Shown piece after piece: positions 3,055 to 37,560 of a DNA stretch of 64,000 bases. Every line of letters begins with the position of its first letter. The stretch's first letter is position 1. The translations under genes were made by a program, and so were the position numbers. Source of the DNA: an uncultured Pseudomonadales bacterium. Lineage in GTDB: Bacteria; Patescibacteriota; Microgenomatia; UBA1400; MFAQ01. Below the pieces are notes generated by a model. That model searched no databases. It worked only from the letters and a program-made list of their open reading frames with translations, and had not been told where the DNA came from. The stretch spans positions 154-64,153 of the forward strand of contig CAZPFY010000001.1 in NCBI GenBank assembly GCA_964586045.1. Reading direction: 5' to 3'.

Positions 3055-3109
3055 GCCTATTTCTCCTTTTGATTTGGTAAAGACCTTAACCTATATATTT
3101 TATCACAAA

Positions 3110-8826: not shown

Positions 8827-9249
8827 CTAAATTACAGGGTTTTCGATGAGCTTTAGTTTGCGAAGAATGGGAGCAAGGAAAACCAAAATGAGAGAACCTT
8901 CGACAAAGTTGATGGTGAAGGAAAGAAAGAGAGCAAGGAGTAGGTAGTTGTAGGCCTGTTTTTTGGTAAGAGAATAATAGTGGGAGACGGAATAAAAAAC
9001 TAAGATGTAAGCGATGGTAATGAGCGGGTCGAAGTAGGTGAGACCGTTTTGGATACTAAGGTTGGCGCTAAAGGCAGAGAGAAAGCCAGAAAGAAAAACA
9101 CAGACAAGACCGAGAATTGTGGTGGTGGCGATAATTCCTAGGACTTTACCTAAGGGTTTGAGGTTGATTTTTTTGTGTTTTGATATGGGTAGTTGGGAGT
9201 TGGTGTTGGTTGAGGGAGATGTTTGAATTGGGGCTGATGGGTTGTACAT
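8827..9249 (-). CDS. hypothetical membrane protein
   Basis: 140 aa with three or four hydrophobic helices. It is convergent with the M23 gene. Confidence 0.45.
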   Translation of the reverse strand: MYNPSAPIQTSPSTNTNSQLPISKHKKINLKPLGKVLGIIATTTILGLVCVFLSGFLSAFSANLSIQNGLTYFDPLITIAYILVFYSVSHYYSLTKKQAYNYLLLALFLSFTINFVEGSLILVFLAPILRKLKLIENPVI

Positions 9250-9270: not shown

Positions 9271-12200
9271 TTATTTTGCGTTGTTAATGGCCGTTATAGC
9301 ATTTTTGATATCTTGAGGAATTTGTGAGTCTGTTTGGGGAGCGAAGGTGTCCTGGTTTTTGTTGCGAATTAACTTGGTCCCTTCTTGCCCAACCAGAGCT
9401 TTGAAACCGTCTTCGTCAACAATATAAACATACGGATTGCCGAGTGGTTTGTTGTCGCCAGTCTCCTTGACTGAGTTGGCTTCTGTAACTACGGCATACC
9501 ACTTATTATTCAAGATATATGTTTCAACAATTGCTCCGGTGTGTTTGTCGCCGTTGTTTGTAAAGTAGTCTCCTTTTTGAAAATTGGAAGGTTTAGGATT
9601 TTCGACGATATCTACATTTCTGAGAAAGTCGGGATTGGTAAGCTGGTCTGATGGATAGACGATGGCCTGGTTGCCTTTGGAAACATTGTAGTCAGGATAC
9701 AAGGGTTTTTCGCCATTTCTGCTTGAGTAAATCCCGGTGCTGTAGGCCCACATAAGACATTGGACAATTTCTCTTTCTTTTAGGCCAAAAGTTAAGCCAA
9801 TATAGTTTTGGTAATATTTTTTGTAATCGCTGCTAGAAATAATTCCTTGTAGATTTTTTTCCATGTAATTATTGAAAGCAGTTACATGTTCAGAGTCGTT
9901 ATAAAGAATGCCATCGTATTCTCTGACTATTTTGGCGATATAGGTAATTTTTTGGAGTTGGACTATGGTGGGGTCGGTAGAGTTTGGGTCGAAACTTTGT
10001 GGATTGAGTAATACGCCGTGACCTTGAAGGTCTTTATTTAGTTCCGTGTTGTTTGGGTAAATGGAGTCGGCTTCTGAGTAGTTATATCTTGGGGTGGGGG
10101 TAGTGGTGATAATTTCGGTGGGGGTAGGTGTAATTGTCGGTTGGATTGTGGGTGTGGGGGTAGTGGTGATAATTTCGGTGGGGGTAGGTGTAATTGGGGC
10201 AGCGGTGGTATAGAGCTGGCTATCCATCCAGGGGAGGAAGAAGATAAGGCTCAGGGAGCTGACGGCGGAGATGATGGTTACTCTTACTATTTCGCCCGCG
10301 GTTTTGCCGATGTTTTTTGTTTTGGTGAGTGGGATGGTGTCTGGTGCTGATATGCTTTCTACATTTTTGCTGCGGGTGATGAGGGAGTCACGATACATTC
10401 TGATTGGTTCGAGATTGTTGAGTAGAGGAGTAATGTCGTCCAACTGAGTGCTAAAGCTGTTTTTTTCGGTGCCTTCCTTTAGATACATTGCCTGTTGTTT
10501 GAATTCAAGAGGTTTATTGGTTAGGGCACCACTATCGATGACTTCGGCTCTTGTTCCATAACTGGTTATCTTGCTATCTGGGTAGTAAATTGAATCGATC
10601 CAGACTTTTTCACCCGTGGCAGTAGAAGCCATAGCCCACTCTACAGTTCTTCCTTCGAGTACTCCTTGATGAATTTCTATTTCTATCTTGCCCAAGATAG
10701 AGTCATTGATCGCGTATCTTCGAATTGGTTGTTTGGTAAAGTCAGGAATAAAGCCATCCGGATATTTAAAATTTCTAAAAGTTGCCGTGAAGTCGGTTTT
10801 GGAGTAATCCCTGTTGTAGTATGCGTCGTACTCTGGAGAATAGGTTCCTGGTCTAAAATATTCAACATTTTCGAGCCCTGGAATATCTGTATGGCCAATG
10901 ACCTCTTTGGTGTAGGTGTTTGAAGGATGGGGTATGCCATCGGCGGGAATAAAGTCGGTGACGAAGTTGCCGGTATGGGTTTTGCCTGACTTGCTGTTTG
11001 CTACCAAAGCTTCGTTAATAAGGTGATGGGGTTTTGTTTCTTGGGTGTAGTGAATATCTCTACCTTTACTAAAGGTGTTTCCAAAAGTTCCTGGGGTGAC
11101 TTTCCAGCTACCATCAGCTCCAGACTTCCAAGCGACACGAGCGACGTAAGTACCATTTGGTAGGGTGGTGTAAATGATGACCATTTCGTAGTTACTTCCT
11201 CTGGGTGTGATGGAGTTAAAAGAGTCGGAAATGTAGAATTTTTTTCCGTCTATTTCGACAAATTTGGTTGGTAAATAGGTATCGTCAGCAACAATTTTTT
11301 TGAAGTACTCTTGTGGGTGTTCGGTTTTTAGTTTGACAAACGTTTGTTTTTCGGTGCTGGTAATTGCTTTTGGTAATTCGCTTATTGGTGAGGTTGGCGT
11401 TGGTGTTGATTCTGTTGTCTCAGTCTTGACTTTTGGAGTAAGTTTTTGCCGAGAGATGATTTTTATTTGAGATTTGATATCGTCGATGATGCTCGGGACG
11501 GTGTGAACAATGTTGTAATTTTGGAGATCCGTGTAGTACATAATCATTTTTGTGTAGTTGGTATCGGTGATTGGGGTGAATTTTCCATTGGCATCGAGAT
11601 GACCAAATTCAACAAAAGCGCCTCTGGGCAGGCTTTCAAAAGCGGGTAGATAGTTTGGTCCTTCTTCTAGTGAATAAATGACTCTTGGGGTGCGTAGCTG
11701 AAGATTGTCATTGGTTGAGGTGAGGGCAATGTAAACCTGTTGACCGTTGATTTTGCTGGGAGGGATTGTGCCTTGTTTGGTACCTCCGACTCGGTATTCA
11801 TCACCTGGGTAGATAGCGACGTTTCCTGTCGGCTTGCTTAAACTGGTGGTGGTTTTGTTTGATTTGAACAATTTTCTTGGTTGGAGAGCAGAATTTATTT
11901 GGTAGGGATTTCCGTCGGGGGAGAAGTAGAGTTTGGTGTTTTTGGAGAGAATAATATAGTCACCTGCTTGGGCGCTGGCTTGTCCGCCGGCACGGATGCG
12001 TTGACCGTTGATAGAAACGGTGGAGTTGTTGTTTGCTTTTGGAATCGAGACGAGTATTGATCCATCACTTTCTTTGGTGAGGGTGATGGGGTTACGAGAA
12101 ACCTCGATATCGTGGATGGCTTGATATGGATTGTTGCTATCGTCCGCTTTGGTGTATCTTCCTATATTAAACGATTTACCATTTTCGAGAGGAATGATAG

Positions 12201-15200
12201 AAGATGTTGATTGTCTAGTTTCGGTTCTGCCAGTAAGGATTTCTCTTGCTAAAATAATAACTCCTTTGTCGTTTGTATTTGTCGTGGTAGTGGTCGCGTC
12301 TGTCGCAGGGGCTGTGCGAGAGGAGCGGAGTGGAACTGAAGGAGTGGAAAGAGAACTAGTTTTTTTTTCTGCTAGATAATTGGTAAGTTCTTCTGCGTTT
12401 GGATTGTGACCGTATTTTTCTCGAAACGCAATCATGGCTTCGAAAGTTTTATTGTTTGTTATTTGTTCTGGAGATTGATAGGTTGCAGCGTTTTTTGGAG
12501 CGCTGGTGTTGGCGAGTCGTGCTAATTCTTCTGCACTGTTTACTCTTGTGTTGGCAGCTTTTGGATCTGGGATCGATTTTTGGAGGTAGATATTGGCTTG
12601 TTCTTTGATTATTGCAGCAAGGTCGGCTTTGTCGGTGGCGCTGGTGTTGGGGTCGTTGTATTTGTCGATAAATTTCTGAAGGTAGTCTCTGGTTGGTGAG
12701 TCGGCAGGAGGAAGGACTTTGGAGGAGAGGCCGGTGATTGATTCGAGAGATGTGGGGGTGTTGTTGGTGCTATTTGGATTTTGGGTGTAGTAGTTTTCAG
12801 CAACGATTCTTTCGGCTTCTGTTCTAGATAGATTAAATTCTTTAACTAGATTATCGATAATTAAATACTCAGTTTTTTCATTACGATTGTCGAAGATGTA
12901 TTTTGTTGCTGTTTGAGTTGATGGAGATGGTTGTGTTTGGGTGCGAACATTAAGATCGCGTAGGGGAATGGCTTTGGAAATATTTTCGTTGAGGAATTCG
13001 GCGACCTGCATGCCGATACTTCTCGTTGTGTGTGCTGGTGAATTGATTGCGTCTTTTGGTACATATATTAGTCCGCCAGCTACTGCAACAAAGTCTTTGG
13101 TAGATTCACTTCCAATTTTTACTCCGCCAGACTCGCGGATTAATTCTCCTTTCCAGATTTTGGAAAGTGTTTTTAGGAACCAGTTTTGGGATTTTGTGGT
13201 AGGATTGTTTTTGTAGTTTTTGTTTCCTGGGTATCCCGGAAAGTCGTTGATATCTGCTATGAGGTTTGACTGATTGATAATTTTTTGTAGGTCGATTAGT
13301 TTTGGATTTTTCTGGTCTATCAGATTTATGACTTCAGCTACAGATTTGTTGATTATATCTATGCCGTTATCAGAAGCGATTTTGATTATAATTGTGTCTG
13401 GTTGGTTTGCAGGGATGAGCATTTCGGTGGTGGTGAGTGGTGAGATAAGATTTGATCTGTGTTTGAGTGTATAAGTGACTTCTCCCGTATCTTGGTCTAT
13501 TTTGAGAATGGTGACATTTTTATCAGTGATTCTTTTATCTGCTCCTAAAAATGTCATTAGGCTTTTTTCTCGCATGCCTCTCACTTTTTCTAAAACTTGT
13601 TGTGAAGATAAGTCAAGTCTGTCTCTGACTGATTTGTTGTCTGTGTATAATCCGGTACTGGGGTTGGTGTCGTTGGGATCGATTTGTCCTCTCTCTCTTG
13701 CCCTAACAATTGCCCTACTAGTTAGTTCGTCGACTTTGGACTCGAAAACTGTGGTGGCTAGTTCAATGACATCGGTGTTATCGAGAGGTGAATTGGCTTT
13801 AGAGATGAAGTCTCTTTGGGCAGTGTCTAGGTCTCGATGGTATCTTGCCATTTCTGATAGATAATTTTGGTCTAAACTTAGTGCACGAATTATTTTTATT
13901 TCTTCATCATTAAAATTATTTTTTAGAGTTTCAGTAAAAAAAGACTCATTTTCTGAGGCAATCCCATTTCGCTCTTCCACAATTTTTGCTATTTCAAGAT
14001 TCCTGGGGTTGTTGGTGTTAGCAATTGTATTGCCAGAATCATTTTGATTTCTGTTTAAATATCTTTTTGTGGCGAGTGAAGTTAAACCACTTATTTGTTT
14101 ATCTGTTTGTTCTTGAATTTGTGATTTCGCAGTGGCAATATCTGCTTCGCTGTACCCGTTTTTGGGGTTACTAAAGTCGGCTTCTACCTCGTTAAAGATA
14201 TTTTGGGTTTTTGTAATTTCGGAAATATAGTTTGGATCTTTTGAAAGCATCCTAACCGTTTCAATTTCGGCAGGAGTAAAACCTTCGTCTTGTAGTAGGC
14301 GATATGTATAGAGTGGTTCGCTAGTTAATTTTTGGTGATACTTTTCTGTTGCTTGGGCGATGGTGACATTTCTTTTCGTGTTTGCTGGAGATGAATCTGC
14401 TGGTGATTTAATAAATGGCGTGTCGACTATTTTGGTTGTGTCTGTTGTGATGCTGAATTTGCTATAGATGTTTTTGAGTACAGCTTCGAGTCTTGTTGGA
14501 TTGGCTGCGGCAATTTCTGCCAGCTTTTTTTCTGTTTGTGGAATTTGATTAATGGCCTCAATGGTGAGGTTTTTAACGTCAGTATCGTTTCTCGCTTGTT
14601 TTTGTAAACTTAAAATATATTCTTGATCAAAGCTAAGTTTGAGAGCAATATCTACCTCTTGGTCATTAAAGGCTAGTTTTTTTAAGTGGCTTCTAAAAGC
14701 GTCTAGATTCTCTACTGCTTCGTAGTGATATCTTTCAGCTGCCATAGAGATACCAATAATTTGGTTTTCGCTTAATTCTGTAGCTACGGGTAATTTGGAG
14801 TTTGGGGTGGAGGCGGTCTTTAGCGATTCTGGGTCGAGACTTCTGGGACTTCTGTAGGCTGTGTCATTGAAAAAAATGCCAGGTACTTGAGTGACTGGGT
14901 CTTTTCCTTTCAAGTTTGCTTCGGTTATAAAACTAAAATTGTGATTGGGTGGATTTTCGCGTTTGATCATGTCGGGAGTTAAGCCTTCGACTTTGGCTCC
15001 ACTTTCAAGCACTTTTTTTATAAAGATCGCGTCTGGTTGGTCGCCTGCGATAATCATCGTTCCTGATATATCTTTTCCTAATATTTCGCTATATCGTTTG
15101 GTTAGATAGGTTATCTTTCCTGTTGCTTTTTCTGTTGACAAAATCACGATAGTTGGATCGGACATTCGGTTGGCTGCAGCAGACAGATTGGTCATTTCAG

Positions 15201-18200
15201 CTACGCCTAGATCTTTTATGATTTCTGCGAGCTCGGTTTTTGTAGCACCAAAAGCTAGTTCCATCTTGCGAATATTTTTGGTGCTGTAAACTGGATTTTG
15301 GATTATTCCCAAGCCTCCAAACACTTTGGTCATGGGATAATTTGGATTTATTTTGTCGCCGACGCCACCGGATTCGCCACCTATTCTTCCATACCAAATA
15401 TCGGAAAGTAGTTTTAGAAATCGGTTTTGGGGTTGGGTTGTGTTTGTTGTTTGTCCGAGGGTAACGAGGCTGTTGTATGACGATTCTGGAGTTCCGGGTG
15501 ATAAAAATACGTTTTTAATTTTAACCAAAGCAATTGTTAGATTGTTATATCCCAATGGTTTGGGATTTCCAGGTTTAGTTCCGATTGGTTTTTCAAACTT
15601 CAAAGTGTATTTTTCGTATTTACTAGTTAAGTTTTCGATGGCTATCATTCGATCTTCGTCATTGGTGTATGTCTTAACATTAATTTCGTCTAATTCACCG
15701 ACGAACATTTCAGCAAGGCGATTTTTTTGAGACTTGGTTAGAGTTGGGGGAGCGGTTGGGGTGGTGGGGATTGGGGGTGTTGCGTCTGGTTTTGGCTGGA
15801 GATTCTCTTCACTTATGGCGTTTTTGGCGCCGGCAACAATTTTTTTACTTTCAGCATTTATAAAATCTATTTCATCTGAATAACGCATCTCGTCAACTGT
15901 GGCGATTCTGTTTTCTGACTCGTCGTTTGGATCACTTAAGAGCTCTTTTGCGATGCGTTCATTTGCGATTCCTCTTTCTTCTAGTGCATTTGTTAATAAT
16001 TGGTCTGATCCAGACTCTCTTATCTTTGCAGCGATTTCTAGATCGGAGTTAGAAAAGCCTCGCTCGATGAGTTTTGCTCTAAAATTTGCATCGGATAGAT
16101 CCCTGTAAGTGATAACAGCTCGGACTATGGAGGAGTCTGCGGTAGGAGACCTTGTCAGGTTTTCAAGGTTAGATGCTGTTTCTCGAAAATTTCTACTGTT
16201 ATTTGTTGTGGTGTCGATGGTTTTTGATTTTATGAGGTTGGCGAGGGTGATGTCGTCGGTAGTTTGGGTAGGAATTTTTCGATTGAAGAGAATGTCTTCA
16301 CTGATACCGAGACTGGCGAGTTTTTCGGTGAGTCCGGGGACTTGATTGTAGAGAATTGAGTCGGTGGTGTTGTCGAGTGACTTGTGGGTTGTTCCAGTGG
16401 GGGAGTTTGTTGAATTATTTGTAGCTAAATTTGTGGCTTTGGTTATAGCAAAAGAGGTGAAGTTGATGGCTTTATCGACAGCTTGGTCGAAAACAATAGC
16501 CATGATTAAATTGCTTTTGGCAGCATCATTATTTTCTTTGGTAACTGTTTGGGCAATTTCTTTACAGGCACCAGAGCCAATACCATTTTTTCTTTCGCAA
16601 CTAGTTAGTTCTATTTCAGATTGGGTGTCGATAAAACCAACAGTGCTTTTGAATTGATAGTCGGCTTGAGTGCCGCCTATTAGTGAATTGCCGAGGCTTG
16701 ATGCTAAGTTGATACCAGTAACCCCGGCTTTTTGGAGTAAAGTTGTTGGGTTTGGTAGTTTGAGATTGGCGACGTAGGAACCAGTACCAGCAGAGATGGC
16801 GCCCATGACAGGGGCGATGGCGAGGTTGATGACGGCTTGACGCTGGTTTTCTTTTTGAAGAGCATCAAATTGTTCGTTGATGAGAGTTTGCATGGAAGCT
16901 TGGGCTGTTATTTCTGAGTTGTTTACGACGGCATTGAGATCGGCATTGTACTGTTGGTAGGTATTGGTAATCGCTTGATAATTTGCAAATTGATTATCTT
17001 TGGTGGTACAAGAAGCACCGATTTTGACACCTTCAGCGGTGTCGCAAGCGGCACCTTGGTTGCTATAGATAGCTTGAATGAGGGTGGCGGCTTTGTCGTT
17101 TCCGACAACTTTGGCAATGCCTTGTCTTTCAGCTTCTATTTCTTGGGCAGTGGCTGTCCCAAGAACTGGAACCAAGTTGGAAATTGCAGCAGCTGTTCCG
17201 CCGATGGCGCCACATGCAAGTGCGCCTGGTCCAAGCTCGGCACAAAGGGCTGTGGCAAGGATCGCGGTGCCAACAGCACCGACAACCCCTGTACCCCTGG
17301 TGTAGGTTTCGGTAACGTAGTAGCGATCTAGCATTTCGTTGGCTAAATTGGTTTTTTGTTGTTCAGTAAGCGGTTTGTTTGCTTCGAGCTGATTTCTGAC
17401 TGAAGCGGGAACGCTGATAGAAGTTCCGGACATATTACCAAAACCATATTTCGGATCAAAAAACTGAAGGCGATCATGAGCTTCGGCAGAGTTAACTGCT
17501 TTTTTTCGAGCTTCATCAGACACCGCAGCGTTATCGATGGTGGCAATGTTGCTTTGGAAAGCATCGGGGAGGGCGTCTTTTTGGATTTGATCGTTAAAAA
17601 CTTCGGCTAGATAGGTGTCTGAATTTTGACTAACGATTTTTGTTAACTCTGTTAGAGCATTTTTTCTGGCCTTAATATAATCATTGCTTGACGCGCCACC
17701 ACCGACGGTACTTAAAGCTTTTTGGCAGAGACTGTCGAGACCTTTGTTGATTTCACAAGCTTTTTTGATTGCTAGATTTTGATATTTTGTATCGGCGTTT
17801 TCCCATTTTACTGGTTTTCCGTTGTCGCTAAGACCTTTGATGGTTTGCTCTTGGGTTAGCTTGTTGGACAGAGAAAGAATAATAGGATTCATATCTTGAC
17901 CAACTTTGTAAGCCGAAGCTTTTTGGATATCGGCAAAGGCTTTGGGATTTTTGTTGTACTTGTCGGAATAGGTTTGATAAACAGTAAAATCTTTGGAAAT
18001 ATCTTCTCGGAATTTGAGAGCATACGCGTCTCTTTGTTCGATGGATTGTTTTGAGAGGAGACAGGTGGCATCACAATTTGGCATTTTGTCTTTTAGATAG
18101 GCCCAGGTGGCTTGAGTTATAGCTTGGTCCAAAAGCACGACTTCGTTTTTGACATTGTTATTGATGCCACTGACTTGTTTGCCTTCTTTAAAATTGGGAA

Positions 18201-19608
18201 TGACTTTGGGGATGAGATTTTCGAGAGCTACAAAGCGTTTGGCTTGAGCATCCTGTTTGATTTGGTCGTTAGTTATTTGTTTGAGAATATCTGTTCGTTC
18301 AAAGTTGCGAAGACAATCGGTTTCACCTTTTTTGCAGACACCGGCAGCGACGGCCATATCACTACTTGTTTTGTTTGGGTCGGCGTAGATATTGGCGAAG
18401 AAAATATTATTGATTTGGTCCTGGCGAGCCTTTACTACTTGCTTGTAATAATTTGGATCGGTATCTTTTAGGGCGATGGTGTCGAGATACATTTGAGGTT
18501 TGAAAGTATTTTCGCAAGCGATGTTGCTTTTGCAGTATTCTTTTTTTAGTTCGGCATCAGTTTTGGTGAGAAATTTGTCAGTAACCAATTTGATAGTGGC
18601 AATTTGAGTTTGTTGTTCTCGTAAAGATTTTTTGAAACTTGTGACCTCGATGTCTTCGAAACCAGCATTTTTGAGGTAATCTTCGCGTTGAAACTCTTTG
18701 AGGCAGATATCTTTTCCGGAAGATTTGCTGCAGGCTTCTTTGGCGAGAGTGGCGGTGCTAATATTTAAATCAAAAAATTTACTAAATGATCTCTGTTGGG
18801 CGTCGATTTTTTGGACAGTTTTTTCGAGACTTTCGGGAGGATAGCCAAGGGCTTGGAGCTTGCCCTTGATGTCGGCTTTGGTTTGGATTTCGGTATCGGT
18901 AATGATTGATCTGGTTAGATCGTTGATAAAAGTTTGATTGGCTTGTTCGGTGATATTTTTTTCATATTCGAGGGGGATGTTGTTGAGAGATATTAAGGCC
19001 TTGCCTGCGTCGGCGAGGGTTTTTGTTTGGCAGTCGAGGTTGGTTCCACATGCAGCATACTGTGTTGTGAGATTAGTTTGGGTAAGAATTTCGGAGGAGG
19101 TGAGATTTGCGACTCGGGTTTGAACACTGTTGACGTATTCGACGGCGGCTTTTTTGGTGTCGGGTAAATTGACTACGTATCTTTTGCCGTTTTGACAATA
19201 TGTGCCGGAAACAAAACCGCCACATTCTTTATCGGTGTCGTAACCATATTCACCTTTTTTGGGAACGTAACCAAAGCGATAGGCAGCAATAGGGGTGGGA
19301 GTTACGATAATCTTTTGTTGGGTTGGGGAAGGTGATGTTGTTGGAGAGACTGAGTTTTTTGTTGCGCTAGTGGCAGGATTGTTTTTATCAGCTTTTTTGG
19401 TGGGGGTGGCAGTAGTTTTTGGTGGTGTTGCTTTTTTAACGGGGACAGCTCTATCTTCTGGTACAGTCATGGCGTAGGGGGTGCTACCTGGAGCATTGGG
19501 GGTTATGCCTTTGGTGTCTGAAATTTTTTGGGAAACATAAAAAGATGTGCCTGCGACACCGGAGATAAAAACAACAGCTAAAATGGCTCGTAAAAAGCGA
19601 GTTTGCAC
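9271..19608 (-). CDS. giant (3445 aa) envelope protein with Cys-rich N-region, internal duplicated modules, FHA-like domain, TM segment and C-terminal Cys/His (CHAP/NlpC-like) module
   Basis: Uninterrupted 10.3-kb ORF with a GTG start and an N-terminal signal anchor. Paired-Cys motifs fill the first ~1000 aa. Gly/Ala hydrophobic segments lie at about aa 1050-1110. Duplicated modules are present (ILSTEKATGKITYL.. / ILKIDQDTGEVTYT..). An FHA-like stretch is FNIGRYTKADDSNNPYQAIHDIEVSRNP...VSINGQRI. A TM helix (IVRVTIISAVSSLSLIFFLPW) sits near aa 3170. The C-terminal domain carries QCLMWAYSTG...GDKHTGAIV. Confidence 0.85.
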   Translation of the reverse strand: MQTRFLRAILAVVFISGVAGTSFYVSQKISDTKGITPNAPGSTPYAMTVPEDRAVPVKKATPPKTTATPTKKADKNNPATSATKNSVSPTTSPSPTQQKIIVTPTPIAAYRFGYVPKKGEYGYDTDKECGGFVSGTYCQNGKRYVVNLPDTKKAAVEYVNSVQTRVANLTSSEILTQTNLTTQYAACGTNLDCQTKTLADAGKALISLNNIPLEYEKNITEQANQTFINDLTRSIITDTEIQTKADIKGKLQALGYPPESLEKTVQKIDAQQRSFSKFFDLNISTATLAKEACSKSSGKDICLKEFQREDYLKNAGFEDIEVTSFKKSLREQQTQIATIKLVTDKFLTKTDAELKKEYCKSNIACENTFKPQMYLDTIALKDTDPNYYKQVVKARQDQINNIFFANIYADPNKTSSDMAVAAGVCKKGETDCLRNFERTDILKQITNDQIKQDAQAKRFVALENLIPKVIPNFKEGKQVSGINNNVKNEVVLLDQAITQATWAYLKDKMPNCDATCLLSKQSIEQRDAYALKFREDISKDFTVYQTYSDKYNKNPKAFADIQKASAYKVGQDMNPIILSLSNKLTQEQTIKGLSDNGKPVKWENADTKYQNLAIKKACEINKGLDSLCQKALSTVGGGASSNDYIKARKNALTELTKIVSQNSDTYLAEVFNDQIQKDALPDAFQSNIATIDNAAVSDEARKKAVNSAEAHDRLQFFDPKYGFGNMSGTSISVPASVRNQLEANKPLTEQQKTNLANEMLDRYYVTETYTRGTGVVGAVGTAILATALCAELGPGALACGAIGGTAAAISNLVPVLGTATAQEIEAERQGIAKVVGNDKAATLIQAIYSNQGAACDTAEGVKIGASCTTKDNQFANYQAITNTYQQYNADLNAVVNNSEITAQASMQTLINEQFDALQKENQRQAVINLAIAPVMGAISAGTGSYVANLKLPNPTTLLQKAGVTGINLASSLGNSLIGGTQADYQFKSTVGFIDTQSEIELTSCERKNGIGSGACKEIAQTVTKENNDAAKSNLIMAIVFDQAVDKAINFTSFAITKATNLATNNSTNSPTGTTHKSLDNTTDSILYNQVPGLTEKLASLGISEDILFNRKIPTQTTDDITLANLIKSKTIDTTTNNSRNFRETASNLENLTRSPTADSSIVRAVITYRDLSDANFRAKLIERGFSNSDLEIAAKIRESGSDQLLTNALEERGIANERIAKELLSDPNDESENRIATVDEMRYSDEIDFINAESKKIVAGAKNAISEENLQPKPDATPPIPTTPTAPPTLTKSQKNRLAEMFVGELDEINVKTYTNDEDRMIAIENLTSKYEKYTLKFEKPIGTKPGNPKPLGYNNLTIALVKIKNVFLSPGTPESSYNSLVTLGQTTNTTQPQNRFLKLLSDIWYGRIGGESGGVGDKINPNYPMTKVFGGLGIIQNPVYSTKNIRKMELAFGATKTELAEIIKDLGVAEMTNLSAAANRMSDPTIVILSTEKATGKITYLTKRYSEILGKDISGTMIIAGDQPDAIFIKKVLESGAKVEGLTPDMIKRENPPNHNFSFITEANLKGKDPVTQVPGIFFNDTAYRSPRSLDPESLKTASTPNSKLPVATELSENQIIGISMAAERYHYEAVENLDAFRSHLKKLAFNDQEVDIALKLSFDQEYILSLQKQARNDTDVKNLTIEAINQIPQTEKKLAEIAAANPTRLEAVLKNIYSKFSITTDTTKIVDTPFIKSPADSSPANTKRNVTIAQATEKYHQKLTSEPLYTYRLLQDEGFTPAEIETVRMLSKDPNYISEITKTQNIFNEVEADFSNPKNGYSEADIATAKSQIQEQTDKQISGLTSLATKRYLNRNQNDSGNTIANTNNPRNLEIAKIVEERNGIASENESFFTETLKNNFNDEEIKIIRALSLDQNYLSEMARYHRDLDTAQRDFISKANSPLDNTDVIELATTVFESKVDELTSRAIVRARERGQIDPNDTNPSTGLYTDNKSVRDRLDLSSQQVLEKVRGMREKSLMTFLGADKRITDKNVTILKIDQDTGEVTYTLKHRSNLISPLTTTEMLIPANQPDTIIIKIASDNGIDIINKSVAEVINLIDQKNPKLIDLQKIINQSNLIADINDFPGYPGNKNYKNNPTTKSQNWFLKTLSKIWKGELIRESGGVKIGSESTKDFVAVAGGLIYVPKDAINSPAHTTRSIGMQVAEFLNENISKAIPLRDLNVRTQTQPSPSTQTATKYIFDNRNEKTEYLIIDNLVKEFNLSRTEAERIVAENYYTQNPNSTNNTPTSLESITGLSSKVLPPADSPTRDYLQKFIDKYNDPNTSATDKADLAAIIKEQANIYLQKSIPDPKAANTRVNSAEELARLANTSAPKNAATYQSPEQITNNKTFEAMIAFREKYGHNPNAEELTNYLAEKKTSSLSTPSVPLRSSRTAPATDATTTTTNTNDKGVIILAREILTGRTETRQSTSSIIPLENGKSFNIGRYTKADDSNNPYQAIHDIEVSRNPITLTKESDGSILVSIPKANNNSTVSINGQRIRAGGQASAQAGDYIILSKNTKLYFSPDGNPYQINSALQPRKLFKSNKTTTSLSKPTGNVAIYPGDEYRVGGTKQGTIPPSKINGQQVYIALTSTNDNLQLRTPRVIYSLEEGPNYLPAFESLPRGAFVEFGHLDANGKFTPITDTNYTKMIMYYTDLQNYNIVHTVPSIIDDIKSQIKIISRQKLTPKVKTETTESTPTPTSPISELPKAITSTEKQTFVKLKTEHPQEYFKKIVADDTYLPTKFVEIDGKKFYISDSFNSITPRGSNYEMVIIYTTLPNGTYVARVAWKSGADGSWKVTPGTFGNTFSKGRDIHYTQETKPHHLINEALVANSKSGKTHTGNFVTDFIPADGIPHPSNTYTKEVIGHTDIPGLENVEYFRPGTYSPEYDAYYNRDYSKTDFTATFRNFKYPDGFIPDFTKQPIRRYAINDSILGKIEIEIHQGVLEGRTVEWAMASTATGEKVWIDSIYYPDSKITSYGTRAEVIDSGALTNKPLEFKQQAMYLKEGTEKNSFSTQLDDITPLLNNLEPIRMYRDSLITRSKNVESISAPDTIPLTKTKNIGKTAGEIVRVTIISAVSSLSLIFFLPWMDSQLYTTAAPITPTPTEIITTTPTPTIQPTITPTPTEIITTTPTPRYNYSEADSIYPNNTELNKDLQGHGVLLNPQSFDPNSTDPTIVQLQKITYIAKIVREYDGILYNDSEHVTAFNNYMEKNLQGIISSSDYKKYYQNYIGLTFGLKEREIVQCLMWAYSTGIYSSRNGEKPLYPDYNVSKGNQAIVYPSDQLTNPDFLRNVDIVENPKPSNFQKGDYFTNNGDKHTGAIVETYILNNKWYAVVTEANSVKETGDNKPLGNPYVYIVDEDGFKALVGQEGTKLIRNKNQDTFAPQTDSQIPQDIKNAITAINNAK
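10090..10195. repeat. direct 46-bp repeat (two copies, 60-bp period) inside the giant gene, encoding ITPTPTEIITTTPTP twice
   Basis: GGTGTGGGGGTAGTGGTGATAATTTCGGTGGGGGTAGGTGTAATTG occurs at 10090-10135 and 10150-10195. Confidence 0.8.
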
Positions 19609-19663
19609 AATTTCATTTAAGCATTTTGTTGACTATATTAGAAGAGGTATTTATGATGAATAT

Positions 19664-20332
19664 ATGGAAAACACAAAGAAGTATGTTTATGGATTTTTGG
19701 GAGTAGTGATTTTATTTTTTGTTTGGAGACATATTACAAATCCTTTGGTAGTTACTGTTTCGGGTAGTGGAAAAGTTGCGGTGCCGGCTACTGAGGCTTT
19801 GGTGGCGGCGACGGTGGTAGAAACGGCTGATTCGGTGGACTTGGTGGAGAAAAATTTGAAAACAAAAATCGGAGCTGTCCGCCTAGCGATGGTAAACGGG
19901 GGAGTGGATGAAAAAAGTTTGAGTCAATCCCAGGTTACGATAACGCCTTTGGCGGCGGTTGTTAGCGGAGCAAAAGGATACTCGGCCACAGTACAGGTTT
20001 CGGGACAATCGAAAGATGTAGCCAACCTTAATATTTTAATTGTTAAGGTTTACCAAGCTGGAGCCTCTATTGTTTCTCAACCTGTGGTGCAAGTAAGCAA
20101 TCAACAAGAACTCGAAAATTCTGCTTTAAAAATGGCTCTGGTGGAAGCAGATAAAAATGCCAAGTACTTGGCCAAGTTAAAATGGAAAATGTTTAAAAAG
20201 GTTGTTTCGGTGCAACAGGCTTCTTCGGGGAACACCTCGACTTCGACAAAGATTTCGTCGGATAACAATGGAGTTGTTGGTTCTAGCTTTGAAGTGGCTA
20301 AGGCGGTGTCGGTGGTCTATTATCTTTGGTAA
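19664..20332 (+). CDS. SIMPL-domain (DUF541, BP26/YggE-like) protein
   Basis: Start set at MENTKKYVYGFLGVVILFF to avoid overlap with the giant gene. An N-terminal TM is followed by a body with the SIMPL pattern (VVTVSGSGKV..., YSATVQVSG..., ALKMALVEADKNAKYLAKL). Confidence 0.55.
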   Translation: MENTKKYVYGFLGVVILFFVWRHITNPLVVTVSGSGKVAVPATEALVAATVVETADSVDLVEKNLKTKIGAVRLAMVNGGVDEKSLSQSQVTITPLAAVVSGAKGYSATVQVSGQSKDVANLNILIVKVYQAGASIVSQPVVQVSNQQELENSALKMALVEADKNAKYLAKLKWKMFKKVVSVQQASSGNTSTSTKISSDNNGVVGSSFEVAKAVSVVYYLW

Positions 20333-20368: not shown

Positions 20369-21397
20369 ATGATAGATTTTGTAAAAGTATCGATAAGATC
20401 GGGAAAAGGGGGTAATGGCTCGGTGAGTTTTCGTCGGGAAAGATTTATTCCTAAAGGTGGACCAGACGGTGGAGATGGGAGTAAGGGCGGAGATGTTTAT
20501 GTAGAGACAGATGCCAATTTAAATACCCTAGATGTCTTTAATCACAACCAAAAACTGTGGGCGGATAATGGTCAGAACGGAAGAGGAAAAAAGATGTTTG
20601 GATTGAAGGGAAAGGACCTTGTTATCAAGGTTCCTGTTGGTACGGTTTTGAGAATGAAACCACAGATATCAGTTGACAGATCTCAGATCATAGATGGGGA
20701 AACCCTTGCATTGGAAGAGAAAATTTTGGATTTTGATAAGCTGGGGATGAAGGTTTTGGTAGCAAAAGGTGGTAAGGGGGGGAGAGGTAATGTTCACTTT
20801 AAAAGTGCTAGAAATACGACCCCGGTAACGGCTGAGGATGGTGGGCCAAGTGAGAGCTTTGAGGTAGAGATGGAACTAAAGCTGTTGGCAGATGTGGGTT
20901 TGGTGGGCTTGCCTAACGTGGGGAAGTCGACCTTGCTTTCGGCTTTGTCTAACGCTAGACCAAAAGTGGCAGATTATGAATTTACGACTTTGGAGCCAAA
21001 TTTGGGGGTGATGAAAGTTGGAGAAAAATCTTTGGTGATAGCTGACATTCCAGGAATAATTGAAGGGGCAAGTGAAGGAAAGGGTTTGGGGATTCAATTT
21101 TTGAAACACATAGAAAGAACAAAATTGCTTGTTCATTTGGTTTCTGTTTTTGAAAAAAGCCCCGAAGAGGCCTATGGAGATTATGTGGCAATAAGAAGGG
21201 AATTGGAAAGTTTTGGAGAAATATTGATAGACAAGCAAGAAATAGTGGTTTTGAGTAAAATTGATTTGGTCGAGGAAATAAAACTAAAAGAAATGATTGG
21301 TTACTTTAAGAAAAAGAAGGTGTCTGTTTCTGCTTTATCGGTGGCGAATGGAAAAGGTGTTGCAGAGCTAAAAACTAGAATGCTCGACATTCGTTGA
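20369..21397 (+). CDS. obg: GTPase Obg (ObgE/CgtA)
   Basis: The Obg fold N-terminus is MIDFVKVSIRSGKGGNGSVSFRRERFIPKGGPDGGDGSKGGDV. The G domain is ADVGLVGLPNVGKSTLLSALS...DIPGIIEGA. Confidence 0.95.
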   Translation: MIDFVKVSIRSGKGGNGSVSFRRERFIPKGGPDGGDGSKGGDVYVETDANLNTLDVFNHNQKLWADNGQNGRGKKMFGLKGKDLVIKVPVGTVLRMKPQISVDRSQIIDGETLALEEKILDFDKLGMKVLVAKGGKGGRGNVHFKSARNTTPVTAEDGGPSESFEVEMELKLLADVGLVGLPNVGKSTLLSALSNARPKVADYEFTTLEPNLGVMKVGEKSLVIADIPGIIEGASEGKGLGIQFLKHIERTKLLVHLVSVFEKSPEEAYGDYVAIRRELESFGEILIDKQEIVVLSKIDLVEEIKLKEMIGYFKKKKVSVSALSVANGKGVAELKTRMLDIR

Positions 21398-22016
21398 GAT
21401 AAACACCTCTTCGGTTTTTGAGGGTGCAGTCCGGGCAGGTGCTAGGAGGACAAAAACTTGGTCCACAGGTAGGAATGCTGTCCTGGGCAACAATAACACA
21501 AGCTCCGTTTTTGCAACCATAAGATACTTCGCAAAGCTGTTTACCACTACAACCTTTAACTAGGTCGATATAACTCATGTCGGTAGAAGAGACTGCAATG
21601 GTGTTTGGGCAGTAGTAGATATTGTTAGATTTTGGGTCGTTGGTCATTGATAGCGTTGTATATATGGCGTATTTTTGGGGACAACTGGAATCGATGGGGG
21701 TTGTGTAAACAGTATACGGTTCCTTTGTAGCAGGGTCGCATAAAACTTTGTCGAGATAAGGTTGTAGAGCGTTTGATCCGCATTGAGTAAGTACGCTTTT
21801 TTCGGGGTAGCAGCTATGATCGTTGTAGTAATTTTCAAGGGCGGTTTTTAGTTTTGCCAAATTGTCTCTTCGAACTGTATCGTGGCCGCGTAAAAATTGA
21901 GCATGAGGATTGAGACCTATTAATGAGGCAAGTCCCAAAATAACAATTAAGGTAACCACAACCAAAATTTCACCAAGAGTGAAGCCGTTGGGTGTTTTTG
22001 GTTTTGAGTTTTTCAT
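21375..22016 (-). CDS. type IV pilin-like protein (prepilin N-terminal cleavage/methylation domain)
   Basis: The N-terminus KPKTPNGFTLGEILVVVTLIVILGLASL matches the class III signal with G-F-T-L-x-E. The C-terminal half is Cys-rich. It overlaps the obg 3' end convergently by about 22 nt. Confidence 0.7.
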   Translation of the reverse strand: MKNSKPKTPNGFTLGEILVVVTLIVILGLASLIGLNPHAQFLRGHDTVRRDNLAKLKTALENYYNDHSCYPEKSVLTQCGSNALQPYLDKVLCDPATKEPYTVYTTPIDSSCPQKYAIYTTLSMTNDPKSNNIYYCPNTIAVSSTDMSYIDLVKGCSGKQLCEVSYGCKNGACVIVAQDSIPTCGPSFCPPSTCPDCTLKNRRGVYLNECRAF

Positions 22017-22045
22017 TTTATATTTTTATTGTATACATATTTAGT

Positions 22046-25000
22046 TTATTTGGTTTGGACCAGCCAGAAATTGAATGAGATTTCGTCTTCTATTGGTTGC
22101 GGAATGGCGATGGTGAAGCCAACATGGCTTTGTTTGGATTTTACGAATAAGACTTGATTGTTGGTGTCGGAAATTGGGGTGATGTAAACCAAAGTATCAT
22201 CGTTTATTTTGGAACTATTTATAAAAATTTCGGAAGAACCTGTTGCAATAGAGGCGGTGCCAATGGTGGAGTTGGAGGATGTTTGACCGGAGATAGTGGA
22301 GTCTAAATTATTTCCGGAAGCGATGACTAATCCGTAAGTGGTAAGCTTGTCAAAGTTAGCTGAACCAGAAGCGTCGACAGAGCCGACAACGTTACCATCC
22401 TGATTGAAAAGTGCTAGGATTTTTGCTGAATCGGTAGCGAGTTCACCTTTACCGACAGCGAGGGTGCCAGAGACAGTAGCGGTACGAGTGTCGAGGTTGT
22501 TGGCAAAAATATTTCCCGTAACGATTAAGTCTCCATCTACTACAATTTGACCATTGGGGTAGAGGGTCATGAGATTTGCAAGTAAGTGGACTGGTTTGTC
22601 CCCGCTTGGTTGGATAAAAAGATCGGTGCCGAAGGAGCTAATAGATTGGCTGAAGATGGAGCCGTTAGCCAGGATGTCGTTTGTGGTCAAAACTTCGATG
22701 TTTAAATTTTTAAATGCCATGTCGGTTGGCAAAGAAGCTGATTCGGTTGCCAGAGATGAAAGCTGAAGGGGATCGTTGGTTGGATTTGTTTCACTATCCA
22801 GGGCGCTAAAAAGACTGTCGTATTGGGAATATTTTTCTTGAATAGAGGCAAAAATTGATGAGGCGGTGGAATATTTTTCGTTTAAAACGTCAAGTTGAGC
22901 TTTTAGTTTGTCGATGGTTTCACTCTTTATATTGTTAGCGTACAAAGTTCCTGAGACGGTGGCGATATTAACCTTTAGCTGATCGATGTCGGCGATTGGA
23001 GTTATTAGTTTTTGTTGAACAGTAAGATTGTCGATTAACAAATTCATAACAATGTTGGAGCCGAGCTTGAGATTGTTAATAATTTCGCTAGCAATTGATG
23101 ATGAGCTAGTTGCATGGTTCTGATTTAATTTTAAAGATATTTGATTGGTAAGAATCGTAATCTCTTCGTTATTGAAGCTTGAAGAAAGAGAAGCGATTTT
23201 GGCATCTAAGCCTTCTATTTGGTTGGCGTAAATTTTGTCTGCGGTGATTGTGTTGGTGACAATACTGTTTGTATTTAATTCGTCAAAATTACCTTGCTTG
23301 GCAAAAACGGTAGAGGCCTTGATTTGTCCTTCTACTATGAGTAGGGGTTGGGTGTTGTCGGAAAGTAAGTTGGGAGAAATGGTTATAGAAGCAGTAGAGG
23401 CCATGGGAGTAAGGAAACTGGTTTCGATGGTGGGAGAAACTAGCTGATTGGTAGAGATTGAACCGGTGATGACTTTGGCAAAAGAGCCAACGGTGTTTAC
23501 AAATCTGCCTGCAGTTTCGTCGAATAGTTCGTTGGTGTTGGAAATTAGGCGATAAACCCGACTGCTAAAAGTGGTTGGGTTGGGGGCGATACCATTGTTA
23601 ATGTGAATGAGAACAACGCCTTTGCCAATGTTGGGAATCCAGTCTTCAAAGGCGGTACCAATTACTTTGTCGTTTGGCATAGCTTTGGTGGCAAAACCAG
23701 GAAGAGGTGAAGAAGTGAGGCTGTCGCCAGCTTTGATATCTTGTGAGGAAGGATCAATTTTTACAGGTATTCTTCCTGCCAAACCAAGAAGTCGGCGGTT
23801 TTCGGCGGTGATTCCTAGCTCTTGTCCTGCTTTAGTGGAAATTGCACCGACTAAATATTGATCATTCGGAGAGCTTGTTTTGCGAAGAATTGGCACTCCA
23901 AACGGATCAGTTTTTCCCGTAATAGCGACTAAATCGCCGGCTTCAATACTTGGATCTTCGACGGTGTACCACTCAGCGAGATCAGCTCCGTAGACAACGG
24001 CGTCTAATCTGATTTGAATTGTTTCTCCGGTTTTGTTGTAAAGGCGGACGGTGTTCATGTCGGTCTGAACAATTTTGAAACCATTGCTCCAATCGAGCTG
24101 AACACTGCGGAGAGTGGGATGGTAGGCCGGATTGGTAGTAGTGAGGATGGCACGATATTGGAAGTATTCGTTGGGGGTAGAGCTTACTGTGGAGCCATCG
24201 GCATTTGTTAAGTATCTGTCGGCGGTAATATTGTCGACGTATAAAGTAGTGTTTGTTGAAGGAAGGGAGATGCGAAGTTTGGTAACCGCGTTGCGATTGG
24301 TCGTATTGATGTCGGTGAGATCCCAGTAGATTTTTTGCCAAGTGTTGGCGGCTTGGATGTAGAAAGTTTTTTCTTGTTCGGTGCCGGTGGATTCGCCAAA
24401 ACCAAATTTGACAAGATTGCCGGAGCTAGTGGCGTAGACCCAAGCAGTGAGGTAGTCGTAGTTGGTAAGGTCTTTGGCGGTAACTGTAGTTTCGGAATAA
24501 CCATTGGGGCTGCCGACTGAAGAAAACTTGGTCATGTTGCCAACGGTTGCCTCATCTTCATCTTCGAAATAGTCTACGTTGCGAGCTACGCCACCATCTG
24601 CTCTGGTTAAGTCAACCATACCCCAGAGAGTGTCGGTGTTCATATCTATGACGTCGAGTTTGTTGGTATTTGCCACGACTGGTTTCCAAGCTTCCCAGGT
24701 GCCATCTATAGAATTGGCAGATTTTCCAGAGCGAGTTTGGAGCTCTATCATGCCGTAAGTGTCGAGGTCGGCAAGCCACTTGATTTTGTTGTAGCCCGTC
24801 GAGTTTGGAGTTGGCATTTCTTCGGAGATGTACATGGAGTAGTTGTAGGATGGGGTTTGGGCGACGGCTGCGGCCGGGCTGGTCGTTCCCGTTAGGGTAG
24901 AGGCGTAGTAAATGGCTACCCTGCCATCTCCACCACTACCCCCTTCGAAATTGGAAAGACCCGCTATTTGTGCACCGCCATTGCTACTGACAAGGCTGGA

Positions 25001-28000
25001 ACCTAAACTTAGTGTATTTCCGAGAATTTTGATAGAGCCACCCGCACCTGCACCGCCTCCACCCTGGGTACTAGCAGCAGTGCCAGTAAGGCTATCGTCA
25101 CCTTTACTGAGAATTGAGCCCGAAACAGAAATAGTATCGCTATTGATAATGACTATGCCACCACCGCCTCCGCCCGCTAGTCCTGAGTAGTATGTACCGG
25201 TAGTGGCTTGACCAGCTCCACCACCGCCTCCGCCCGAACCCAGGTAGAGCTTGCCTAAGCTGGATTCCCCGTAATTACCAGCTCCACCACCACCACCACC
25301 ACCACCGAAACCACTACCCACACTTCCACCACTCGTACCGCTGCCACTTTGGTTGGTATCACCATTGCTAGCGATAGTTGGACCGGTTCCGCCACTTCCC
25401 CCAGCAGCGTAGCCACCCCCACCCCCACCTCCACCATAACCATTGTAGGAAGAGCCGTTGCTGCTCGCGCTTCCTGCACCACCACCACCTCCCGCCCCAG
25501 TAGTTGATGTTCCTACTCCACCAGTGCCGATACCATCCGTCAAATGTCTCCCTCCACCACCACCACCACTATAAACACCGTTTTGGCCTAGATTGTTGGG
25601 TGTTAATGGTGTGCCACCATCTCCGTCGACTCCAGATGTATAGAAAAGACTATGACCAGGGATGGATCTGGTGGTTGTACTTATTGCGCCGGTGCCACCG
25701 GGATATCCTTTGCCTGTAGCATTGATAGAGCCGGCGACAGAGACGGCGCTAATAGCCCGAAAAAAGAGGACACCACCTAAACCAGTTGTGTAGTCATAAG
25801 CGCTTGGGGAGAGGGTGGCACTAGAATCTACAGTGACGCTTGTGTAGTTGGGGACTCTTTGGAGCATAACTTTTTGATTGTTGACGCCGATGCCGAGATT
25901 GGTGTCGTCGCCTGCGCCGTCTCCATAGTACTTACCCTTACTAGTGGTAAAAGTGATTACGTTGCCGGCAAGACTACTAATTCTGAGGGTTTCGTAGTTG
26001 CCAACATTGACGATCGACCCTTGGGTTCCTTGTAGATTTATAAGTAGTATTTCGTCGCCTGTTTTAAGACAACTGGGTGTAGAGGGAATGGTGGAAAGCG
26101 TTGCCGTGGTTGAGGTGAGAGTGTTAACTGAGTAGTTGATAGCATCAGCACAGGTGCGGCCAACAATTGAGTCTGTGCTCAAGACTTTGGTGCCACTAGT
26201 AACCGTACCCGCACCATCGGCACCATTGCCTGGGTCATAGTCGCCAGCTTGGGTAACACCGGTGGCATTACTGGTAATACCGCTATTTGATAAAGCAGAC
26301 AAAGCGGTTTCGGAAACAGTGAGGTGAGAAGAAGAATAATAGTCGGTGGAATTAGCAAGGCGAATACTGCTGGCGTCGATGGTATGGGAAGCACCGTCGG
26401 AGTAGGTGAGTGAGATATTTGAAATACTGGGGGTGGCTTGGCCATTGGAGCTTGTGAGGATGAAGCGGTATTGGAAATAATTTTTGGGAGTAGAGGTGGG
26501 GGCGGTGCCAGAGGCGACAATGAGCTCTTCGGACTGTAAGCTGTCGACATAGACAGTTTGGTTTGGAGACAAGAGAGTGATTCTTAGCTTTGTAATTGCG
26601 TTTTTTGAAGCACTGGCAACATCACTGATGTCCCAATAAACTTTTTGCCAAGTACCAGTAGCGTCGATTTGAATTATTTCTTCTTGTTCGGTAGCAGCGG
26701 ATTCGCCGATGCCAAGTTTGATTTGTCCGGAAGCAGTAGCGTACACCCAAGCGGAGATAAGGTCGAAATTGGTAAGATCTGTACTAGTAATAGTGTCTTC
26801 GGCGTAACCATTTTCAGCTCCGACGGATCCAAGTTTAATACTTTTGTTTGCAGCATTGGTGATATCTTCGTCTTCGAAGTAATTGACGTTGCGAGCTAAG
26901 GTGCCATCGGCAACGGCATTTAAATTTGTAGCTGTCCAGTCGGCCGTTGCATCCATCGCATTTAGATTTTTGATATTCGTAGTGGTGACAACTGGTTTCC
27001 AAGCTTCCCAGCTACCATCAGTAGAGTCGGGGGTGTTGCCTGTTCTGGTTTGGGCTTCGACTTGGCCATAAGTATTTAGGGTTTCGGTGTAAGCAAAACT
27101 ATTTAAGTTAACGGCGCCGGTGGTGTTGATCTCCTTAGAGACGTAGATGCCATAGTAGCCAGACTGGTGAAGATATGGCGAGGTGGGGAAGTCTGGTTCC
27201 GAAGAGTTTGCAGTTAAAGTGTTTTTGTAAGAGACAGCGATACGGCCGACGCCACCAGTACCACCATCAACAGCTGTAGTGTCGCCAGCACCGCCTGCTG
27301 CAGTAATTAAGTCGGTGGTACTGGTGGTTACTGTGTCTGCCACAATTTTTACGGATCCTCCGGCACCACCACCACCCGATCCTGGATAGGTTGCTGTGGC
27401 GGCGGCGCTACCAGCGCCTCCATTACTTTGGATTCCGCCTGTGCTGGTAACCGAAAGAGTGGCGGCTGAGATCATGAGAATTCCACCACCTTTACCACCA
27501 GCACCTCCGTTGCTTGCAACGTATGTAGTAGTTCCCGTATCTCCGGCACCACCACCAGAGCCACCAGAGCCAAAATATGCTTTGTCTAAGTAGGTGTCAC
27601 CGTAGGTTCCACCACCACCACCACCACCAGCGTAAGCAGGGCCAGTGGTGGTGGTCCAGGCAGAAGTACCACCGTTTCCACTGGTTACCCCGCTTCCATT
27701 GACACCATCGCTAGTTGGAGTGTTGCCAGATTTTCCTCCATTTCCAATTGTTCCGTAACCACCACCAGCACCACCACCACCATACCCATAACCCGAAGCT
27801 CCGGTTGCGGCTCCGGCACTACCACCACCACCACCAGCGCCACCAATGGAAGAGCCGGCAATATTGGCATTGTAAAGAGTTGCGGCATTTACACCTCCAC
27901 CACCACCGCCACCACAGATACCGACTGAACCAACTGGATTATTGTCGTAATCTGCACCGCCACCGCCACCATTTGCGTTGCAGTATGACTCACCTCCATC

Positions 28001-34145: not shown

Positions 34146-34150
34146 GAGTG

Positions 34151-36538: not shown

Positions 36539-36566
36539 TATATATTTAGATTACTACACTATCGCT

Positions 36567-37559: not shown

Positions 37560-37560
37560 A

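Follow-up and report, generated by a model that had tools for sequence, protein, structure and literature searches.

A minus-strand gene in the 64,000-nt stretch of contig CAZPFY010000001.1 analysed here (the window), which derives from an uncultured, Collierbacteria-like member of the Microgenomatia, encodes a prepilin that we assign with high confidence to the type IV pilin family, based on its sequence motif, its family profile and its predicted fold. Comparison with its relatives indicates that it is a member of a very large and so far uncharacterised Microgenomates pilin subfamily with an apparently modular and presumably disulfide-rich architecture. The gene is preceded by a giant fibre-like gene, here named g1, and this adjacency is conserved among relatives. 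Taken alone, a pilin gene in a candidate phyla radiation (CPR) genome is expected and will not surprise specialists; the conserved adjacency to the giant fibre gene deserves attention, the pilin itself being fairly ordinary. CPR organisms rely on cell-to-cell contact, and type IV pili belong to the small set of attachment devices whose importance to them has been shown. We estimate, with a probability of about 0.6, that the protein would be an accessory pilin of a type IV pilus, co-expressed with g1 for attachment and exposing a rigid, disulfide-stapled module.

Pilin signature, fold and modules

The prepilin was noted in a preliminary description of the window, and it is present on the minus strand as an open reading frame (ORF) of 213 codons that has an ATG start and whose product carries a class III signal peptide. 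Its single usable start codon lies ten codons ahead of the Gly of the cleavage site. The N-terminus consists of the short basic leader MKNSKPKTPNG followed by FTLGEILVVVTLIVILGLASLIGL, which places Gly at −1, Phe at +1 and Glu at +5, with about 24 hydrophobic residues. All elements of a class III signal peptide (leader, Gly, hydrophobic residue at +1, Glu at +5 and about 20 hydrophobic residues) are thus present, and in a six-frame regular-expression scan of all 64 kb the signature was found at the pilin site alone. A search for close homologues gave 12 matches including the query, ten of them at 52–64% identity and one at 30%. Their alignment shows T13, L14 and E16 without exception and G11, F12 and 12 Cys with few exceptions; since full-length homologues conserve the key residues, the ORF is not a chance reading frame. 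The identical protein has been called on four public contigs.

Wider searches place the protein among type IV pilins. A profile search of 1.84 billion representatives returned 45,656 proteins at E ≤ 1e-3, 4,999 at E ≤ 1e-10 and 82 at E ≤ 1e-30, and 143 of the best 150 representatives carry the signature G/A-x-[TS]-x-x-E. When the family profile of 64 relatives was compared with solved structures, all 20 matching chains were type IV pilins or pseudopilins, the best being a Geobacter pilin (3.6e-17), Thermus PilA (1.3e-8) and PulG (1.5e-8).

The predicted structure agrees with this assignment. An AlphaFold2 model built on the alignment of 64 sequences (predicted local distance difference test score, pLDDT, 95.1; predicted template modelling score, pTM, 0.81) has helices at residues 14–34 and 37–67 followed by beta strands; an alignment of 12 homologues gave a pLDDT of 59. 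The model displays the lollipop shape of a long alpha1 helix on a beta-sheet head, and the top 23 Foldseek matches are all pilins or pseudopilins, albeit at weak E-values (0.065 or higher). The structure prediction proposed in the preliminary description therefore yielded a helix-plus-beta-head model with matches to the pilin and pseudopilin folds. Alpha1-C in the pilin module carries the GspG-like motif DTVRRDNLAKLKTALENYYNDHSCYP, and the GspG model TIGR01710 matches residues 11–74 with an E-value of 6.6e-6. GspG identity was considered and rejected: the TIGR01710 score of 26.2 bits is far under the equivalog cut-off of 88.85, and the pilin has no match to PF08334 (T2SSG), which 12 of the 64 relatives do match. 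The protein has a GspG-like core without being a GspG.

A two-module structure is suggested by the length distribution of the relatives. After re-alignment of the best 150 representatives to the family profile, 77 are full length and 65 stop at position ~120–130; the latter comprise 24 short pilins (108–174 aa) and 41 proteins with unrelated C-termini of 70–476 residues. As 65 of the 150 have the N-terminal module only and 77 have both, we place the boundary at about 125–130, so that the pilin appears to combine a GspG-like core up to residue ~128 with a Cys-rich module of ~85 residues. No Pfam or NCBIfam model matches this C-terminal module, no solved structural counterpart was found, and a search with the module alone returned no candidates.

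The cysteine richness of the C-terminal half had been recognised before, and the count bears it out: the pilin has 14 Cys (positions 69, 79, 93, 112, 136, 156, 162, 168, 173, 184, 189, 194, 197 and 210), ten of which fall within the last 100 residues. The mature protein has an even number of Cys in all 159 full-length relatives (10 in 32 proteins, 12 in 64, 14 in 55, 16 in 6 and 18 in 2). Core residues 168, 173, 184, 197 and 210 are kept in at least 93% of relatives, and the additional Cys 156, 162 and 189 come and go jointly. The constant parity and the joint gain and loss indicate that the cysteines form disulfides, presumably seven in this protein and five to nine across the group. A metal-binding Cys cluster was rejected as the principal interpretation given the even count in 159 of 159 relatives. 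The mature pilin has a net charge of 0 and the C-terminal module one of +1. Five to nine disulfides would imply a surface module that is folded oxidatively and is uncommonly rigid, in organisms whose groundwater habitat is mostly anoxic. The unusual length of the Cys-rich C-terminus had been read as a hint at a minor or tip pilin; this reading is not supported, in that the trait marks the whole large subfamily and alone does not separate minor from major pilins.

Characterised pilins share parts of this architecture. GspG and type IV pilins such as EpsG of V. cholerae (4lw9), Thermus PilA4 (6xxd) and K. oxytoca PulG (5wda), to which the pilin is closest by sequence profile and by fold, have the same signal peptide, alpha1 helix, GspG motif and beta head, but they contain 0–1 disulfides compared with the seven predicted here and lack the ~85-residue Cys-rich module. 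Unlike GspG, the pilin described here belongs to a monoderm CPR organism without a secretin, and its gene lies outside a machinery operon. The modular pilins PilB (vWA) and PilC (lectin) of Streptococcus sanguinis, which are typically adhesive minor pilins (PMC8179133), likewise join a small pilin module to a grafted C-terminal module, and among the relatives of our pilin the N-terminal module also occurs alone or recombined; the graft in the present case differs in being tiny, Cys-rich and without a match to any known domain.

Gene neighbourhood in relatives

The closest genome loci are found in metagenome-assembled genomes of Candidatus Collierbacteria, among which locus L010 encodes a pilin with 63% identity. 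Across the relatives we distinguish three locus contexts, classes A, B and C, which correspond to three clades of the pilin tree. In class C (11 loci, from Woesebacteria and others) the homologue is found inside a full pilus operon, directly after pilD, in the order PilB-PilT-PilC-pilin-PilD-[homologue]-more pilins-PilM-PilN-PilO, with the domains confirmed by Pfam in L030. This placement marks members of the subfamily as bona fide pilus components. In four class C loci (L024, L030, L043 and L022; at ~10.5–11.2 kb within each) the Cys-rich pilin is followed by a pilin-like protein of 160–210 aa that has a GspG-type motif, 'R-x-x-R-D...D', after its hydrophobic helix and is without the G-F-T-L-x-E cleavage motif.

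To class A belong the window, four metagenome contigs and nine species-representative genomes, either named as Collierbacteria or with the Collierbacteria gene order. In all 14 of these Collierbacteria-like loci a g1 homologue lies directly upstream of the pilin, with a gap of 0–59 nt, and the pilin is followed by a convergent obg. The arrangement differs in class B (Gottesmanbacteria, Beckwithbacteria and others), where the order is M23 peptidase gene, obg, a 700-aa TPR membrane protein, three pilins and a g1-like giant; the first of the three pilins is Cys-rich, and the giant lies within ~3.5 kb of the three-pilin cluster in 15 of 16 informative loci. The synteny comparison called for in the preliminary description thus reveals g1–pilin adjacency throughout class A and a giant near the pilins in nearly all informative class B loci. 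Within the window, ORF 55737..57668 (−) encodes a 643-aa membrane protein with C-terminal TPR repeats that is homologous to the ~700-aa gene of class B (L032 7840..9945; 30% identity over 430 aa, E 2e-55) and may be another conserved companion of these pilins.

Immediate neighbours of the pilin gene were correctly laid out in the preliminary description: g1 ends 29 nt upstream, obg and a SIMPL gene lie on the other strand, and g2, a second giant gene, comes thereafter (Table 1). No promoter-like or terminator-like motif was found in the 29-nt spacer on the minus strand, which is compatible with, although not proof of, co-transcription, and the pilin is probably co-transcribed with g1. Relatives L014–L017 have obg followed by the M23 peptidase gene and fkbM, with no g2, SIMPL gene or 140-aa ORF in between. 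As g2 and the SIMPL gene are absent there, g2 appears to be a lineage-specific insertion and not a conserved partner of the pilin. We consequently rejected a functional unit in which the pilin is wedged between two giant genes: of this earlier idea, the adjacency to g1 is conserved beyond this genome, and the second giant is confined to the lineage.

In g1 a conserved N-terminal third and conserved C-terminal ~400 aa enclose a glycine-rich, repeat-rich middle of variable length, and g1-type proteins span 1797 to 3281 aa between species. The protein starts with two XerD-N/phage-integrase SAM-like domains (residues 8–95 and 128–222; Pfam Phage_int_SAM_1, E 1.1e-10, the NCBIfam XerD N-terminal part also being matched), an unusual start for a surface protein. 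At ~266–289 a segment of moderate hydrophobicity is a putative anchor. Residues 298–364 match Bdello_MAT_N, a model of the N-terminus of Bdellovibrio mosaic adhesive trimer fibres, with 31.5 bits, below the cut-off of 60, and an internal duplication relates residues 1120–1293 to 1901–2071 at 57% identity. A search of PDB sequences with the giant protein's last 424 aa found nothing, as did a PHROGs search with the pilin, g1 and g2.

Directly upstream of g1, on the same strand, lies a five-gene operon that we describe as Pam-like at best, since the NCBIfam cut-offs are not reached: ORF 37561..38430 scores 48.2 bits on PamT (NF058579; cut-off 240) and ORF 35111..36538 scores 20.7 bits on Pam_pilin_C (NF058581; cut-off 55). 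The pilin closes the 18-kb same-strand array that starts with this operon, and none of the Pam models matches the pilin. Two further ORFs of the operon (36567..37559 and 34151..35110) encode C-terminal hydrophobic tails, as in membrane-anchored Pam chaperones, and Pam-like genes precede the giant gene in L010–L013 and L018 too. The pam operons of CPR are reported to be consistently accompanied by a 'tail fibre-like protein' (bioRxiv 10.64898/2026.03.03.709456). The surface-appendage module suggested in the preliminary description therefore stands as a neighbourhood, through the conserved g1 adjacency and the Pam-like operon upstream, but g2 is no part of it.

Proposed role and alternatives

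The pilin gene lies outside a pilus operon, is most probably transcribed with g1 and stands at the end of an array led by Pam-like genes, and on these grounds we favour an accessory pilin. According to this proposal the gene would have left the pilus operon and come to be transcribed with g1. The prepilin peptidase PilD would cut after Gly11 and methylate Phe12, and a PilB/PilC/PilM machine encoded elsewhere in the genome would pull the subunit out of the membrane. Its hydrophobic alpha1 helix, together with Glu5, would then place it in a type IV pilus, with the rigid Cys-rich module exposed on the filament. An accessory, low-abundance and possibly tip-located pilin of this kind could serve attachment to host cells or surfaces alongside the giant fibre.

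Several observations weigh against this proposal. The pilin sequence alone scores below the cut-offs of both prepilin models, reaching 14.7 of the 21.2 bits required by PF07963 (N_methyl) and 15.1 of the 16.3 bits required by TIGR02532, so that the N-terminus fell short in the profile searches by which the preliminary description would have judged it. The family nevertheless fared well in the same searches: 61 of the 64 full-length relatives match PF07963 at E ≤ 0.01, and a precomputed PF07963 match exists for 9 of 11 close homologues. Since the family does match overall, we put the low single-sequence scores down to the limited sensitivity inherent in models of short motifs. To these are added the weak Foldseek E-values given above. 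Genes for PilB, PilC, PilD and PilM were not found in the 64-kb window; type IV pilus machinery is near-universal in CPR (PMC11623550; bioRxiv 10.64898/2026.03.03.709456), and Ch65, the sister lineage of Collierbacteria, has the full machinery at one locus (PMC7143001). Both obg and the M23 peptidase gene are equally conserved neighbours of the pilin, and with such housekeeping genes beside it proximity alone is no proof of functional coupling. The class B giant is usually convergent with the pilins, so the two would not be co-transcribed in that class. Two further points concern minor-pilin status in particular: the mature pilin, with 202 residues, has the same size as type IVb major pilins, and the class C position right after pilD would also suit a major pilin.

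Size and operon position are also the starting point of an alternative in which a second, separate type IV pilus has the pilin as its major subunit, the disulfide head giving a rigid filament that would be likened to the thin PilA2 pilus of Saccharibacteria, whose pilin is encoded away from the main machinery; pilin and giant fibre would then be neighbours simply as attachment genes. The fully canonical motif with its invariant Glu5, a helix-breaking N-P at mature positions 25–26, best fold matches with CFA/III and TcpA, both type IVb major pilins, among them, and the great abundance and good conservation of the subfamily would all agree with such a subunit, and a precedent exists in TM7x, which has two type IV pili with pilins spread over four loci (PMC11623550). 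We still regard it as unlikely. The pilC–pilD slot of class C operons already holds another canonical pilin, characterised CPR major pilins are relatively small (PMC11623550), and the modular pilins studied so far are minor pilins (PMC8179133).

A competence or tight-adherence (Tad) pilin, as the preliminary description had envisaged, finds little backing. Nothing points to Tad/Flp pilins, which we rejected, as the motif, the size of 213 aa and the GspG-like core fit a type IVa-like pilin instead. A subunit of a competence pseudopilus for DNA uptake could work with ComEA, ComEC, DprA and ComM, all encoded within the window, and DNA uptake has been proposed for CPR type IV pili (PMC7143001); we consider it improbable, however, as the ComGD model (NF040982) gives the pilin 12.7 bits against a cut-off of 70, neither ComGC nor ComP_DUS matches it, and the net charge implies no basic surface by composition. 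Among the 64 relatives, ComP_DUS is matched by one (E 0.0077). The com genes, moreover, lie on the other strand at a distance of 17–40 kb, and in relatives they do not adjoin the pilin, except for comEA at the far end of L011. Equally remote is a function without an external pilus, be it a short piston, resembling the pseudopilus of type II secretion systems, that exports or deploys g1, or an uncleaved anchor with a Cys-rich ectodomain. The tight pairing with g1, whose 3281-aa product is without a classical signal peptide, would suit such a device, and giant genes of Omnitrophota are flanked by genes resembling type II secretion or type IV pilus genes and by small genes with class III signal peptides (bioRxiv 10.1101/2023.11.21.568195). 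CPR organisms, on the other hand, lack an outer membrane and secretin (PMC7143001) and hence a classical type II secretion system, homologues share operons with PilT, the retraction ATPase, and with PilM/N/O, as is typical of true pili, and any interaction of the pilin with g1 would be conjectural.

A bolder extension of the accessory-pilin proposal is that the pilin and g1 are physical partners, the disulfide-knotted module, joined by two more pilins in other Microgenomates, docking to the conserved C-terminal ~400 residues of the giant, which we consider quite doubtful. If true, a fibre of several thousand residues would be borne, deployed or retracted by a type IV pilus, and the assembly would be a CPR counterpart, made of unrelated parts, of the minor-pilin/PilY1 tip complex. 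The locus would then represent a three-appendage host-capture island beside a Pam pilus operon.

Comparable layouts exist in other bacteria. The fimU-pilVWXY1E operon of Pseudomonas combines minor pilins with the gene of a large non-pilin adhesin, similar to the three pilins and giant of class B; the giant considered here, however, is unrelated to PilY1 and has cytoplasmic XerD-N-like domains and a membrane anchor, both predicted from its sequence, and a single pilin is left beside it. In Omnitrophota giant surface or secreted proteins are likewise recurrently encoded beside small prepilin-like genes (bioRxiv 10.1101/2023.11.21.568195), but these belong to another phylum and have secretion machinery adjacent, of which there is none at the present locus. 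TM7x, a saccharibacterium whose type IV pili T4P-1 and T4P-2 function in host binding and twitching and include minor pilins with accessory domains (PMC11623550), is also a CPR organism with pilin genes over several loci; in contrast to it, our organism belongs to the class Microgenomatia, and neither a disulfide-rich head nor adjacency to a giant gene has been described for TM7x. Pam loci (bioRxiv 10.64898/2026.03.03.709456) resemble the present one in that a Pam-like operon lies directly upstream on the strand of g1 and the pilin, although Pam pilins are Sec-dependent Ig-fold proteins assembled by donor-strand exchange, whereas the pilin has a class III signal peptide. Positioned beside a hypervariable giant fibre gene and downstream of a Pam-like operon, the pilin could be part of a host-attachment neighbourhood, whose genes are candidates for structural and expression studies.

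Further features of the window

Table 1 Coordinates of the pilin gene, its parts and other features (positions in the window)
Feature	Position	Strand	Remarks
140-aa ORF	8827..9249	−	absent along with g2 and the SIMPL gene in L014–L017
g2, second giant gene	9271..19608	−	same strand as pilin, downstream
SIMPL/DUF541 gene	19547..20332	+	opposite strand to pilin
obg	20369..21397	+	opposite strand to pilin
Pilin/obg 3'-end overlap, 23 nt	21375..21397	both	convergent; from ORF coordinates
Prepilin ORF	21375..22016	−	ATG start; 213 aa and TAG stop at 21375..21377; from ORF list and sequence
Cys-rich C-terminal module, residues 129–213	21378..21632	−	10 Cys; no Pfam/NCBIfam model
Pilin module, residues 12–128	21633..21983	−	helix alpha1-N F12–L35, alpha1-C, two beta strands, 4 Cys
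Leader peptide MKNSKPKTPNG, residues 1–11	21984..22016	−	read off the sequence; predicted prepilin-peptidase cut after Gly11
Spacer, 29 nt	22017..22045	−	between g1 stop and pilin start
g1, giant fibre-like gene, 3281 aa	22046..31891	−	conserved upstream partner of pilin
Pam-like five-gene operon	32472..38430 plus 38459..39199	−	directly upstream of g1, same strand
ComEA	39459..40058	+	
ComEC Competence-domain ORF	40060..41178	+	
ComEC metallo-beta-lactamase ORF, split off	41474..42253	+	295-nt gap to Competence-domain ORF
DprA	58647..59495	+	
ComM	61204..62838	+	

The tail-to-tail overlap of the pilin gene and obg leaves no room for separate terminators, and the same 23-nt overlap is present in relatives L001–L006, L008–L012 and L018. 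Two tRNAs, both far from the pilin locus, were the only matches in an Rfam scan of the window. The g2 protein has hydrophobic segments at residues 5–23 and 3107–3125. GC skew per 4-kb bin ranges from +0.22 to +0.39 irrespective of the coding strand, except in the bin 24001..28000, which contains the glycine-rich repeats of g1; earlier work described the same disparity in strand composition in Collierbacteria, Beckwithbacteria and their sister lineage Ch65 (PMC7143001).

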